This document shows positions 56,296-62,063 of a DNA stretch of 64,000 nucleotides, piece after piece; positions within the stretch are counted from its first letter, which is position 1, and every line of letters begins with the position of its first letter. Source of the stretch: a virus (taxonomy: Duplodnaviria; Caudoviricetes); the IMG/VR virus record IMGVR_UViG_3300029319_000001; one strand, written 5' to 3'. A program made the position numbers and the translations under genes. The notes under the pieces were generated by a model. The model had not been told where the DNA came from. It worked only from the letters and a program-made list of their open reading frames with translations, and ran no database searches.

Positions 56296-57189
56296 GTGTC
56301 AAGAGACGGATCACCAAGAGTAAGAAGAATATCAGATGTTCTACCGTTGTTTACAAAAGTAGCAACGACTAATCATTATGAGTTATCATTTCCAGCAATG
56401 CCTTGGCAATTGTTGACCTATATTAAGTTAAAGAGTGAAGATACTATAGATAACGCATTTGTCTTCAGAGATCTAGGTTTATTGTGTAAAGGTGCAGCAT
56501 TACCTGGAACTGCATATGCTACAGCTCAGATTAATGGTAACTATATGGGTATTAATCAAAAGTATGCTCATACAAGAATATACACAGATGCATCATTTAC
56601 TTTCATGGTTGATGATGATTATAGAGTAATTAGATTCTTTGAACTATGGCAAGAATTTATATCAAGTGGATCAAGCACTATGAGAAATAGAAAAGCATAT
56701 TATCATAGAATGCAGTATCCTTCAGAATATAAGTGTGATACTTTAAATTTAAAGAAATTTGATAAGAATCATGGTAATAGTATAGATTATACTTTCCTAA
56801 ATTCATTTCCAGTTAATATCACTCCTGTTGCGGTTAATTACGATACAGCTCAAATCTTAGAAATATCGGTTTCATTTGCTTATGATAGATATTACTTTGG
56901 TAATCTTAGAAGACAAGATACTAGGACTAATCAAGGTAGTGGCAATCCCAACAACCCATATCCAGCTAGTTTCTTAGACCATGCAGGTAATGCTGTAGGT
57001 AATACTCCTACAACTGGTACCAGCGATCTCGCAAAAACTGGTAATTCAGGTGGTACTTCATATCCAGGATTAGAAAATGGTGACATTGTTCTTGATCCTA
57101 ATAAAGAATATAGTGATTCTGAGACAATGAAGATCCTTCTGACATCTCCAGATAATAATGGTGGTTTACCTAAAGAATATATCGCATAA
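56296..57189 (+). CDS. Tail tube initiator/tube-fold protein (gp54/gp19-like)
   Basis: LCKGAALPG, FTFMVDDDY, FFELWQ, FPVNITPV, SFAYDRY; GTG start. Confidence 0.65.
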   Translation: MSRDGSPRVRRISDVLPLFTKVATTNHYELSFPAMPWQLLTYIKLKSEDTIDNAFVFRDLGLLCKGAALPGTAYATAQINGNYMGINQKYAHTRIYTDASFTFMVDDDYRVIRFFELWQEFISSGSSTMRNRKAYYHRMQYPSEYKCDTLNLKKFDKNHGNSIDYTFLNSFPVNITPVAVNYDTAQILEISVSFAYDRYYFGNLRRQDTRTNQGSGNPNNPYPASFLDHAGNAVGNTPTTGTSDLAKTGNSGGTSYPGLENGDIVLDPNKEYSDSETMKILLTSPDNNGGLPKEYIA

Positions 57190-57223: not shown

Positions 57224-57910
57224 ATGGGACTTGCTAAAGATTTAAAAGTAGGAACTAAACAATCTCACTCTGCTGCAGAGAATACTAAGTTTGTTTCTTC
57301 CTTTCTTCGTGGTGTAGTAAACAAAGAAAAATATAGACAACTTGTTGCTAACTATTATTTCATATACCACACTATAGAGTCAGAGGTTAGAAGATTAAAA
57401 GATGATCCTCTCGTTGGATCTTTAGATATTAAAGAACTTTACCGTCATGATGCATTAGCAAAGGACTGTGAATACTTCTTTGGTGCTGACTGGAGAGATA
57501 ACATTTATCCTTCAAAAGCATGTCAACAATACATTGATCGTATTGGAAAGGTTGCCCATGAAGAACCAGAACTTCTCATAGGACATCATTATACAAGGTA
57601 TCTTGGAGATCTATCTGGTGGACAGATTCTTAAGAATATTGCAGAGAAAGCATTAAAGTTAACTGATGGAGGTCTAGACTTCTATGAGTTTCCTGATATA
57701 GAGAACAAAAAAGAATTTAAAAACACATATCGTGCTACACTAAATAAGATGCCTGTGACACAATCACAAGTGTCTGCTATCGTTACTGAAGCAAATTACG
57801 CATTTCGTTTAAATATGTTCATGTTTGATGAATTGGATGGTAATGCGTTTAAATCTGCAGTTGCTTACTTCTGCGGAGTACTTAGAGGAAATACTGATGC
57901 CATTACCTAA
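57224..57910 (+). CDS. ho1: Heme oxygenase
   Basis: GTKQSHSAAENT, HHYTRYLGDLSGGQIL, EANYAFRLNM. Confidence 0.95.
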   Translation: MGLAKDLKVGTKQSHSAAENTKFVSSFLRGVVNKEKYRQLVANYYFIYHTIESEVRRLKDDPLVGSLDIKELYRHDALAKDCEYFFGADWRDNIYPSKACQQYIDRIGKVAHEEPELLIGHHYTRYLGDLSGGQILKNIAEKALKLTDGGLDFYEFPDIENKKEFKNTYRATLNKMPVTQSQVSAIVTEANYAFRLNMFMFDELDGNAFKSAVAYFCGVLRGNTDAIT

Positions 57911-58610
57911 AATTGTTACCCCGACCTATACATTAACTATTCCTTCGTCGGGTAAAAAAATTACATATAGACCTTTCCTAGTCAAAGAAGAAAAAGTTCT
58001 TATCATGGCAATGGAAAGTGATAATATGGATCAAGTTGGTAGAGCAATTAAAGATGTTCTATCTGCATGTATCAATACTCGTGGAATTAGAGTAGATAAA
58101 TTATCCACATTTGACATTGAATATCTATTTCTTCATGTTCGTGGTAAATCTATTGGTGAAACTATTGAGGTCATGGCAACTTGCCCTGATGATGGTCAAA
58201 CTAAAGTTCCTGTAACAGTAAGTATTGATGAAATACAAGTTAAGATTGATCCAGAGCATAGTAAAGATATTAAATTAGATGAAAAGTTAACTCTTAGGAT
58301 GAGATATCCTTCTCTTACTGAGTTTGTTAATCAAAATTTTGGAGAAAAAGATCAAGTAACTGCATCATTTGATGTTATTGCTTCTTGTATAGACATGATT
58401 TATACAGATGAAGAAACATGGTCTGCAAAAGATCATTCTAAAAAAGAATGGGTTGCATTTGTAGAGACATTGCCATCAAATGCATTTAAGCAGGTAGAAA
58501 AGTTTTTCAATACCATGCCTAAATTAGAGCATACTGTTACAATTACTAATCCCAATACAAAGATGGAGAGCGATGTAAAGTTGGAGGGTTTAGCAGCTTT
58601 TTTCAGTTAG
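57897..58610 (+). CDS. gp26: Baseplate hub assembly chaperone
   Basis: MPLPKI..PTY, YRPFLVKEEKVL, FDIEYLFL..RGKSIGE, LEGLAAFF; GAGGA SD. Confidence 0.9.
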   Translation: MPLPKIVTPTYTLTIPSSGKKITYRPFLVKEEKVLIMAMESDNMDQVGRAIKDVLSACINTRGIRVDKLSTFDIEYLFLHVRGKSIGETIEVMATCPDDGQTKVPVTVSIDEIQVKIDPEHSKDIKLDEKLTLRMRYPSLTEFVNQNFGEKDQVTASFDVIASCIDMIYTDEETWSAKDHSKKEWVAFVETLPSNAFKQVEKFFNTMPKLEHTVTITNPNTKMESDVKLEGLAAFFS

Positions 58611-58612
58611 CG

Positions 58613-58789
58613 ATGTTGCACCAAGATATCGTGGCGTTTTATAAAATTAATTTCGCCTTGATGCAGCATCATAAATACAGTTTGAGTGATATCGAAAACA
58701 TGATTCCGTGGGAACGAGATATATACATTAATCTCCTCCAACAATATATTGAAGAAGAAAATCTAAAAAACCAACAAGCTAGAGGCTAA
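58613..58789 (+). CDS. gp51: Baseplate hub assembly catalyst (58 aa, absent from ORF track)
   Basis: YKINFALMQHHKYSLSDIENMIPWERDIY. Confidence 0.88.
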   Translation: MLHQDIVAFYKINFALMQHHKYSLSDIENMIPWERDIYINLLQQYIEEENLKNQQARG

Positions 58790-60564
58790 TGTCGGTACAA
58801 GCAAGTAAAGTATTTCCAAAATCTAGTAGAACTGATAGACAACGAGCATCTACTGATAGGGATTTTGCTGGAAATTCTAAGGAGGATTCAAAAGCATTTA
58901 TAGGACTTAGTAAAAATCTTTTTGCGATTCATAAGAATTTAGGAGCAATTGCTGATTTACTGCAAACACAAGCATTAAATGAGAAAAAAGAAGATGATGC
59001 AGAATTAAAAAAACAACAGAGAGACGAAGATGCAAGGCAAAAATCTGGGGCAGAAAAAGCACTTGAAGGGGTTTTAACTAATGCAGTACTAAAACCGATA
59101 CAGAAGATGAAGGACACTACGGCAGGTATATTTGAACGACTAGTCAAAGTGCTTGGTGCATTGGGTTTAGGTACGATTGCTGTGAAAGGTCTAAAAGGTA
59201 TAGAAGCTTGGATGGAGGGAGATAAAAGTATTCTTGAGCAATTAGAAAAAGATATTAAAACAATATTAGGTGTAGCTGCTGGAGTATTTCTTGCAATTAA
59301 TGTTGGATTACCACTTATTTCATCTGCAATAGGAACTGTAATAGGTAGTATTGGAGTGGGTGGAGCATTTAAAGGAGTGTTAGCATTACTAGGAAATCCT
59401 TATGTTTGGTTAGGAATTATTGCTGCTGTAGGTATAGCATATACAGGAACAGAACTTTATAAGTTTTTAAAAGGTGAATATGGTCCTGATGGAGAAGGTA
59501 TTGGATCTTACGCTCCTATTAACCAAGAAGCAATTGCAGAAATTCAAGAAGTTGGTATGGAACAATACCGAATAAATGAGAGAAACCGAATTGATAATTT
59601 ACTTCAAGCAGATCCAAGTTTGGTAAATGAAAAAACTGGTGAGATGAAAAATGATGCTGAACTCGCAATTATGAGCATGACCAATGATAATGCAAAATTA
59701 TTAATGGCTTATAATAATAGACTCAGGATGTCTCATACTGGTAATTGGGATCAATGGGATCCTAAAAATATGTCTGAAAAGGATACGCAGTTATTCAATA
59801 CTATTCCAAAACTCATTGAAAATTTTAGAAGTGAATGGTCTAAGTTTTATTCACTAGCACAGGAAATAACTGCATTAATGGATGGTGCAAGAACCTTTGA
59901 AGAGGTACCTGATAATATAATGACAAAAATTGATGCAATGATGGTTGAGCAACAACTTCACAAGGATAATATGATTAAGTATCTCGATGCTGTTAAAGCA
60001 TCAAGAAAGAAGATGTCAAATGATGGTAAAAATTATCTAGATGCTATTTTAAGAAAAAATGATATGGGTAATTTACTTTATAATGCTGATTGGTGGGGTA
60101 AAATGGTAATGCCAGGTCCTATTCTAGATGCAGTTCAAGTTAAAGAAGGTCTTACACCAGGATTAAGAAAATTAGCAATCAATACTTTTAATAATCTAGG
60201 TGAAATGAATACAGATCTTGTTGAAGACATAGAAAGAATGCCAGAAGGAAATCCAGTATTAATGGGTGAAGATACTAATTCTCTTTCTCAAAATAATGAA
60301 AATTCTGATCTAGATATTTCCTCAAGTGCTAATGCTTTTACGAATGAAAATTTGTCATTAGCAAATCAAATTAGCGATTATGATGCTTTTAATGAGAAAT
60401 TCAATATAGTTCCATTTGATATTAGTCAGGATGATGCTAATGTTGATTCTGATATAACTTCCACTAGTTTCTTTGCTGAAACAGATTTACCAGCTTTTTC
60501 AATTTTTGATAATGATAATTTTTATAGAGATTTGGCTCAAAGTAATTATGGAGTCTATGACTAA
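58789..60564 (+). CDS. Tape-measure/gp29-like baseplate protein
   Basis: Follows gp51; coiled-coil N-terminus, hydrophobic Gly-rich segment, helical body. Confidence 0.5.
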   Translation: MSVQASKVFPKSSRTDRQRASTDRDFAGNSKEDSKAFIGLSKNLFAIHKNLGAIADLLQTQALNEKKEDDAELKKQQRDEDARQKSGAEKALEGVLTNAVLKPIQKMKDTTAGIFERLVKVLGALGLGTIAVKGLKGIEAWMEGDKSILEQLEKDIKTILGVAAGVFLAINVGLPLISSAIGTVIGSIGVGGAFKGVLALLGNPYVWLGIIAAVGIAYTGTELYKFLKGEYGPDGEGIGSYAPINQEAIAEIQEVGMEQYRINERNRIDNLLQADPSLVNEKTGEMKNDAELAIMSMTNDNAKLLMAYNNRLRMSHTGNWDQWDPKNMSEKDTQLFNTIPKLIENFRSEWSKFYSLAQEITALMDGARTFEEVPDNIMTKIDAMMVEQQLHKDNMIKYLDAVKASRKKMSNDGKNYLDAILRKNDMGNLLYNADWWGKMVMPGPILDAVQVKEGLTPGLRKLAINTFNNLGEMNTDLVEDIERMPEGNPVLMGEDTNSLSQNNENSDLDISSSANAFTNENLSLANQISDYDAFNEKFNIVPFDISQDDANVDSDITSTSFFAETDLPAFSIFDNDNFYRDLAQSNYGVYD

Positions 60565-62063
60565 TGGCAACTTTAATGCCTACTAAGGATCAAGCACTAG
60601 AAATTGGTGCTGGCATTCTTGCTATCAGAGAGACAACTCAAGGTATTCGTAAATCTTTAGGAAAGGAAGTTAAAAGAGATAAAGCCGCATCTAAGAAGAA
60701 ACAAGGATTTCTCCGAAGAATGTTTGCGAGGAAAAAGAAGGCAGATGCAGAGAAAATGATTGAAGCAAAGAAGAAGAAAAATTTTATGGGAAAAGGAGTA
60801 ACAGCTGTTGCAGCTGCAGGTAAATCTTTCGTGGAAAGACTATTTGGTGCTGCTGGTGCATTATTAGTTGGATTTCTTGTTGTTAATTTACCAAAAATTA
60901 TTGAAGAAGTAAAAAAAATTGTTGAGTGGTTACAAAGTGTAAAAGATTGGGTAGATAATTTTGTTGATAAAGTAACAGAAGTTAGTGATGTAATTATAAA
61001 CACAGTTAAAGAATGGATATCCAATATAAAAGAAATGTTTGGGTTTGAAGAGAAGAAAGATGAGATTGAGAAACAGATGGAAGAGGGTAAAAAAGTTGCT
61101 GAGACATTAGAAAAAGATTGGAATGCAGATCAAGAAAGAATTAAAAAAGATATAGAAGAAGCAAAAAGAGAAGGTGAAAGGATAGTTGATGGTTTACCAA
61201 AATCTGATCAAGAGGTTGTTGAAGAATCTAATGCAAGAGTTAATGAAATAAAAGCTTTACAAGAGCAAAGAGATTCGGGAAAAATAACACAACAACAATA
61301 TGAAGCAGAGGTTGATAAGTTGTATGAAAATGAGAATATTGGTGATTCTAAAGAGTCACAAATATTAAGTAACCAAATTGATAGAAACGAATTAAGTCCT
61401 TCTGAATTTTTTGGTACTAATCAATATGGTGATGATAGTACTGGTGAAGGAGAAGAAGAAATCAATACTGATCTTGAAAAACTTGATGATAATGTAAATT
61501 TAGAGGGAACCAACACAAATGAGAATAAAGATCTCTCTTTACAGAATAATGGAGGAGTTAATTTTGTCAGCACTAATAACTCAGGCACAGAAAATGGGGA
61601 AGAACAACCAAAAGAAGTAGTATATCACAAACCTGGTATGAGTATGAAATTTTCACCACCAGGTATAGGAGTTGATGGACTAACCAAAGAAGAAGCAAAA
61701 ACAAGATTTCTAGAACTTCATAATAAACATCCTGACTTAAATTTTGATGAAGAACATGAATATCAAGCACTTGAGATAGTTCTTCATGATAAATTTAATG
61801 TCAATACAACTTCTTTACAAGTTGAGGGTCCCGCAGACTTTATAAAGTCAATAAAAGCTAGATATCCCAATGATGAGATGAATCTAATATCACCAACTGG
61901 CGGTAAAACTATTGTTGTTCCTGTTGATACCTCCCAAAGCGGAATAAATAAAAATGGAACAAAAGTAATTTCTAGTGGTAGTGAAGAGGGTACAACTGCA
62001 GTCGTTGAAATTTCAGCAAACCCAATAAAGAAAATTAATCAGTTCAATAGACACTTTGTATAA
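60564..62063 (+). CDS. Second tape-measure/gp29-like protein
   Basis: Same layout: K/E-rich coiled coil, hydrophobic segment, long helical repeats. Confidence 0.45.
   Translation: MATLMPTKDQALEIGAGILAIRETTQGIRKSLGKEVKRDKAASKKKQGFLRRMFARKKKADAEKMIEAKKKKNFMGKGVTAVAAAGKSFVERLFGAAGALLVGFLVVNLPKIIEEVKKIVEWLQSVKDWVDNFVDKVTEVSDVIINTVKEWISNIKEMFGFEEKKDEIEKQMEEGKKVAETLEKDWNADQERIKKDIEEAKREGERIVDGLPKSDQEVVEESNARVNEIKALQEQRDSGKITQQQYEAEVDKLYENENIGDSKESQILSNQIDRNELSPSEFFGTNQYGDDSTGEGEEEINTDLEKLDDNVNLEGTNTNENKDLSLQNNGGVNFVSTNNSGTENGEEQPKEVVYHKPGMSMKFSPPGIGVDGLTKEEAKTRFLELHNKHPDLNFDEEHEYQALEIVLHDKFNVNTTSLQVEGPADFIKSIKARYPNDEMNLISPTGGKTIVVPVDTSQSGINKNGTKVISSGSEEGTTAVVEISANPIKKINQFNRHFV

Follow-up and report, generated by a model that had tools for sequence, protein, structure and literature searches.

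A conserved slippery heptamer at the junction of genes 26 and 51 in a T4-like cyanophage and its putative role in frameshifted tail assembly chaperones

Described chaperone systems and their relation to the locus

In phage lambda, the proteins G and GT reportedly arise by a -1 frameshift which is said to be conserved in tail assembly chaperone genes, as described by Levin, Hendrix and Casjens in 1993 and by Xu, Hendrix and Duda in 2004. The E/E+E' pair of P2, attributed to Christie et al. in 2002, is said to be the myovirus version of this chaperone frameshift. The locus analyzed here, in which gene gp26 is followed by a small ORF annotated as 'gp51', resembles lambda G/GT in several respects. 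A short and a long product would share their N-terminus, the -1 slip would take place near the 3' end, the N-terminal domain appears to adopt the chaperone fold, and the gene is placed between a gene of the tail tube fold and a presumed tape measure gene. There is, however, no sequence similarity between the two systems. The gp26 protein, with an additional C-terminal part, has roughly double the size of G, and the heptamer is U_UUU_UUC instead of the lambda G_GGA_AAG. Like P2, the phage has a contractile tail and would extend a chaperone by a -1 frameshift ahead of its presumed tape measure gene, whereas the sequence family is an unrelated one and the baseplate of P2 is much simpler.

Gene 10A/10B of T7, with which PMC12846349 draws a comparison, is another phage structural gene with a U-rich slip site at Phe codons, the frameshift occurring on G_GUU_UUC, which likewise ends in UUC. 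The T7 product is however a capsid protein and not a chaperone, and the context of the site is a different one.

For T4 itself, gp26 and gp51 have been described as chaperones of hub assembly, gp51 being required for assembly and absent from the particle (PMC3004832). The gp51 proteins of cyanophages and of KVP40 lack about 200 N-terminal residues and reach only about 20% of the length of the T4 protein (Sullivan et al. 2010, PMC3037559). According to the PRFect paper (PMC10885494) and the phage Adele paper (PMC12846349), which both cite it, the study of Vladimirov, Gautam and Davidson (Virology 2022, PMID 34826709) recognized gp26 and gp51 as the T4-like chaperones and reported that the short and the long form are encoded by separate genes in some phages. 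In addition, PMC12846349 attributes to the same 2022 paper poly-T slippery sequences in T4-like TAC-N genes. A search for open papers detailing gp26/gp51 as TACs returned none. It appears that frameshifted chaperones in T4-like phages were already published in 2022. The preliminary description of the present locus had regarded such a pair as undescribed for T4-like phages, a claim which has to be withdrawn since this paper is cited for T4-like TACs by both sources (PMC10885494, PMC12846349).

The junction between gp26 and gp51

The window, i.e. the whole stretch of 64,000 nucleotides that was analyzed, belongs to a marine T4-like cyanomyovirus whose nearest relatives in GenBank are myoviruses of Synechococcus and Prochlorococcus. 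Its gp26 gene (57897-58610, plus strand, 0 frame) encodes a protein of 237 amino acids, the putative short chaperone form (TAC-N), which ends in LEGLAAFFS. The 3' end of the gene reads GCT TTT TTC AGT TAG, with the stop codon TAG at 58608-58610. This end contains the heptamer T_TTT_TTC (58598-58604, plus strand), which has the X_XXY_YYZ phase in the 0 frame of gp26 and is followed by a spacer of 6 nt, AGTTAG (58605-58610, plus strand), holding the 0-frame stop one codon past the heptamer. An SD-like GGAGG (58583-58587, plus strand), a possible stimulator, is located 10 nt 5' of the heptamer.

The -1 frame is open from position 58550 onward into the 'gp51' ORF, annotated at 58613-58789, and the -1 continuation (58604-58789, plus strand) reads Q-L-A and then the 58-codon 'gp51' tail domain. 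The predicted long form (TAC-NC; 57897-58789, plus strand) would be composed of the codons of 57897-58604 and, after a -1 slip, of those of 58604-58786, which gives 297 amino acids with the junction FFQLAM; its tryptic junction peptide would begin LEGLAAFFQLAM. The ATG of 'gp51' at 58613 lies two bases past the gp26 stop, and a purine-rich SD is absent before it. It is covered by a hairpin (58606-58635, plus strand) with core arms at 58611-58617 and 58625-58631, comprising 7 bp with two G-U pairs. The preliminary description had reported the 3' end of gp26 with position and phase of the heptamer, the 7-bp stem over an ATG devoid of an SD, and the open -1 frame leading to a fusion of about 297 amino acids with this junction, and in all of this it proved accurate.

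From this layout, and from the conservation described below, we consider it likely that a -1 frameshift on TTTTTTC makes a short and a long tail assembly chaperone from gene 26. Most ribosomes would stop at the TAG at 58608 and release the short form. A minority would slip back by one base, the two Phe-tRNAs on UUU-UUC (58599-58604) re-pairing with U-UU and U-UU. The shifted ribosomes would then read CAG UUA GCG AUG and continue through the 58-codon 'gp51' ORF, and the resulting long form would consist of the same N-terminal body and a small helical tail. That it is the ribosome which slips, and with an efficiency that leaves most products short, we infer; the two forms might serve in coating the tape measure and in recruiting tube or hub proteins. 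The contigs of four metatranscriptome runs were inspected over 57897-58900, and none of them spans 58271-58610.

The heptamer alone is common, as TTTTTT followed by C, T or A occurs 101 times on both strands of the 64-kb window. Two of these 101 T6 runs combine a long in-phase upstream ORF with a 0-frame stop in the vicinity and an extended open -1 frame. The second such site is T_TTT_TTA at 981, six codons before the stop of an ORF at 361-1002. Here the next gene (999-1418, in the -1 frame) begins at an ATG of its own, which overlaps the stop as ATGA, and the arrangement probably represents ordinary translational coupling instead of recoding. For the hairpin downstream of the gp26 heptamer the predicted energy is -8.3 kcal/mol (z = -1.16), a value that is also reached by 23 of 200 shuffled sequences. 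The significance of the gp26/gp51 signal is therefore drawn from its conservation across relatives and not from the heptamer or the hairpin alone.

Conservation of the junction among relatives

In IMG/VR, 69 loci were recovered by a protein-guided scan, and both genes were present in 66 of them. In all 66, with gp26 amino acid identities of 32-99%, the tail ORF is found in the -1 frame at constant spacing and an in-phase T6 run stands one codon ahead of the stop; an in-frame gp26-gp51 fusion was found in none of them. An alignment of the 3' ends of the relatives had been suggested with the preliminary description, and it gave an in-phase T6 and -1 continuity at each of the 66 loci. Neither a terminal FF without a T6 run nor a -1 stop blocking the fusion, which had been named there as evidence against a frameshift, was present among them. 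Such a split of one ORF could also be produced by a pseudogene or by a sequencing error, as homopolymer runs are error-prone in sequencing. The same frame relation and stop are however seen in 66 independent metagenomic contigs, and the pattern is repeated in isolate genomes which were obtained with different sequencing methods over 20 years, so that the probability of an artefact is practically negligible.

The 66 loci comprise 46 unique junctions, in which the heptamer is TTTTTTC in 44 cases and TTTTTTA and TTTTTTT in one case each. The codon preceding it is always NNT (GCT, AGT, TCT, AAT or GAT), encoding A, S, N or D, and the 0-frame stop follows exactly one codon past the heptamer in every one of the 46. 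The gp26 stop codon is TAG in 36 of the 46 unique junctions, which is unusual for genes of AT-rich phages.

Another conserved FF of these genes served as an internal control. It is encoded by TTT TTT in 21, TTC TTT in 17, TTT TTC in 6 and TTC TTC in one of the sequences, and this variation among four codon pairs indicates that there has been enough time for synonymous drift. In addition, the normalised synonymous codon entropy falls to its lowest value within the gene at the junction (0.40, compared with a mean of 0.68). With the FF of the junction frozen and the control FF drifting, selection on the heptamer at the nucleotide level is evident from codon usage. At some loci a -1-frame stop is found immediately 5' of the heptamer, which would confine the shift to the heptamer.

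Alternatively, no recoding might take place at all, the 58-amino acid gp51 being a separate protein which starts at its own ATG at 58613 by termination-reinitiation, and the T6 merely reflecting the FF. Indeed, GenBank and RefSeq annotate two genes, and an ATG two bases past the stop is present in the window as well as in 34 of the 46 unique relatives. The first codon of the tail ORF in these 46 is however CTG in eight, ATT in three and CTT in one of the remaining junctions, and many lineages whose start is replaced or absent have nevertheless retained the domain together with an open -1 frame. The frozen synonymous positions of the heptamer, which have no counterpart in the control FF, likewise argue against a separate gene. 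Two GenBank phages leave the tail unannotated because the ATG is replaced.

The arrangement is not restricted to cyanophages. Ten T4-type phages other than cyanophages were sampled, and in nine of them T_TTT_TTY, -1 continuity and the tail domain were found together, i.e. in the Vibrio phage KVP40, the Methylophilales phage Melnitz, the Sinorhizobium phage phiN3, the Acidovorax phage ACP17, Aeromonas phage 65, the Stenotrophomonas phage Mendera, the Ralstonia phage RSP15, the Rhizobium phage IC12 and the Xanthomonas phage X1. In ACP17, Melnitz and Aeromonas 65 the tail ORF is without any start codon. The exception among the ten is Erwinia phage Bue1 (MG973030, Ackermannviridae), which has a shorter U-run only. 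Its gp26 homologue ends with CAG ATT TTC ATT TAA (around 1905-1925), and the -1 frame reaches a gp51-like tail. The slip site of Bue1 may be reduced to U_UUC.

The secondary structure downstream of the heptamer is conserved to a lesser degree. A stable hairpin is found 5-6 nt 3' of the heptamer in about half of the relatives, and at 23 of the 46 junctions the predicted fold is among the best 5% of all windows of the respective gene. A 10-bp stem in relatives is paired to 70%, compared with 27-48% when it is slid along the sequence, and shows compensatory changes at four pairs. Across 45 junctions no consensus structure was returned by RNAalifold. Judged from these predictions, different clades use different stems. 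The term 'canonical cassette' that had been applied to the window is thus justified with respect to the phase of the heptamer and the 6-nt spacer, whereas it overstated the hairpin, which is weak in the window (z of -1.16).

The GGAGG would, together with the heptamer and the downstream hairpin, resemble the signal of E. coli dnaX, including its spacing. The heptamer differs from that of dnaX, however, and the SD-like element of the window overlaps the codons of an invariant Glu-Gly. At 26 of 45 junctions (58%) the Glu within the invariant LEG motif is encoded by GAG, compared with 29% in the gene body, which hints at a dnaX-like stimulator within the constraint set by these two residues. A three-part signal, in which pairing of GGAGG with the 16S rRNA and lineage-specific hairpins would set the ratio of short to long form, and in which a free 58-amino acid peptide would be a third product wherever the ATG is kept, is a tentative extension that we hold to be rather unlikely. 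To our knowledge, neither a dnaX-like layout nor a free 58-amino acid peptide is part of the descriptions of T4-like chaperones.

The same fused protein would result if RNA polymerase, instead of the ribosome, slipped on the T6 run and added an extra U, the mRNA then containing a single frame. In agreement with this, the signal is a homopolymer, which is extended to T7 or T8 in relative L068, Melnitz, phiN3 and RSP15, and about half of the lineages have a weak hairpin or none. However, a T6 run is shorter than the 8-9 bases which bacterial RNA polymerase usually needs for productive slippage, and the C at position 7 is found at 44 of 46 junctions even though Phe is more often encoded by TTT (73%), suggesting that longer runs are not favoured. 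In many lineages, moreover, a stable hairpin lies 5-6 nt downstream, at the very site of a ribosomal stimulator. Because of the canonical layout with its 6-nt spacer, the hairpins in about half of the relatives and the retention of C7, slippage of the ribosome is preferred, and slippage of the polymerase is considered improbable.

Domain structure, neighbouring genes and implications

The gp26 protein matches PF12322 over residues 9-236 (E 1.7e-69) and phrog_150 (E 4.4e-76). Its AlphaFold2 model has a pLDDT of 83.9. When this model was compared with 48,161 PDB chains, the best matches, all to residues 1-97, were 3fgx, 2ob9 and 3klu with Z of 7.8, 7.5 and 7.0, in alignments of 83-86 residues, and the next unrelated match had a Z of 4.5; this result comes from an exhaustive VIA search, and Z values below 8 are modest. 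Neither a Foldseek search against the PDB nor a phmmer search against PDB sequences returned a match for gp26. We take the three entries to be the three solved structures of tail assembly chaperones, 2ob9 being that of HK97 and 3klu being YqbN. The model comparison thus supports a tail assembly chaperone fold in the N-terminal domain of gp26.

The 58-amino acid tail matches phrog_634 (E 1.1e-26) and, in addition, positions 239-278 of phrog_150, and it is 40% identical to residues 208-246 of T4 gp51 (BLASTP, E 1e-7). Over 29 relatives its mean column identity is 75%, and its model contains three predicted helices (pLDDT 79). By these comparisons the tail is a conserved protein domain. T4 gp51 (249 amino acids) in turn matches PF12322 with its residues 1-201 (E 3.9e-52) and phrog_150 over positions 13-280. 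Both T4 gp26 and T4 gp51 match PF12322, the two being 20% identical to each other. A three-way alignment is colinear across the junction, where T4 gp26 ends in FFELL, T4 gp51 reads VFKLLVN and the fusion reads FFQLAML. In terms of its domains, T4 gp51 is accordingly a gp26-like domain followed by the same tail, arranged as in the predicted fusion. The long phrog_150 profile, which might suggest that cyanophages have in-frame fusions, is accounted for by full-length gp51 members of the T4 type.

The proteins of T4 and of the present phage therefore belong to the same family, with a body of PF12322 and phrog_150 and a tail of phrog_634, whereas their genes are organized differently. In T4 (NC_000866, 2803-4229), genes 26 and 51 are divergently transcribed, outward from a gap of 50 bp, and gene 26 encodes its FF by the non-slippery TTC TTT. 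An internal product, 26', is annotated for the T4 gene 26 as well. Thus T4 makes the short and the long form from two diverged gene copies, and the present phage would use one gene and a frameshift. In T4 gp51 the tail occurs solely as the C-terminal end of a body resembling gp26, which adds to the arguments against a separately initiated 58-amino acid protein, and we regard that explanation as very improbable. A frameshift fusion, on the other hand, would supply the roughly 200 missing N-terminal residues and would thereby explain the oddity of gp51 noted by Sullivan et al. 2010. That gp26 and gp51 form an equivalent of the G/GT pair, as the preliminary description had proposed, gains in weight from the preservation of site, phase and spacing, the frequent lack of a start codon, the fused architecture of T4 gp51 and the predicted chaperone fold.

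Upstream of gp26, a gene of the tail tube fold (gp54/gp19-like) is located at 56296-57189 (plus strand; PF23849, E 1.6e-19; phrog_45 tail tube, E 5e-38), and a tube-fold gene also precedes gp26 in KVP40, phiN3, IC12 and Aeromonas 65. In a complex prediction of the 58-amino acid tail with the tube-fold protein the score was 0.00 with poor folds, a result that carries no weight for or against an interaction. The tube-fold gene and gp26 are separated by an inserted heme oxygenase gene (57224-57910; PF01126, E 1.8e-74), which shares 14 nt with the start of gp26; in P-SSM2 and S-SRM01 no gene is present at this position.

Downstream of the junction, an ORF of 591 amino acids (58789-60564, plus strand) is a candidate tape measure by its position, size and composition. 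No match to it was found in Pfam, PHROG or NCBIfam, and BLASTP detected no similarity to T4 gp29; a weak atlas lead points to PF25671 T4_Tape_measure (score 0.87, rank 84). The ORF that follows (60564-62063, 499 amino acids) has a charged, coiled-coil-like middle part, and the equivalent position in S-SRM01 is occupied by an M23 peptidase. For both ORFs an assignment as tape measure is not established, as searches of Pfam (including one at E 10), PHROGs and NCBIfam and a BLASTP comparison with T4 gp29 were negative.

The tail is present in 565 GenBank phage records. Among 40 of these that were sampled, 11 carry no feature over the tail, and in the rest it is recorded as a separate gene or as a hypothetical protein. 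The frameshift, which is unannotated in the public records sampled, would accordingly correct the annotation, in that the small ORF would be the tail of a protein and not a gene of its own. The value of the present analysis consists in this correction, in the corroboration of what had been described and in a clean internal control for selection at the nucleotide level. With regard to biology, it would confirm that the universal chaperone trick of the long tails is shared by the T4-type phages.
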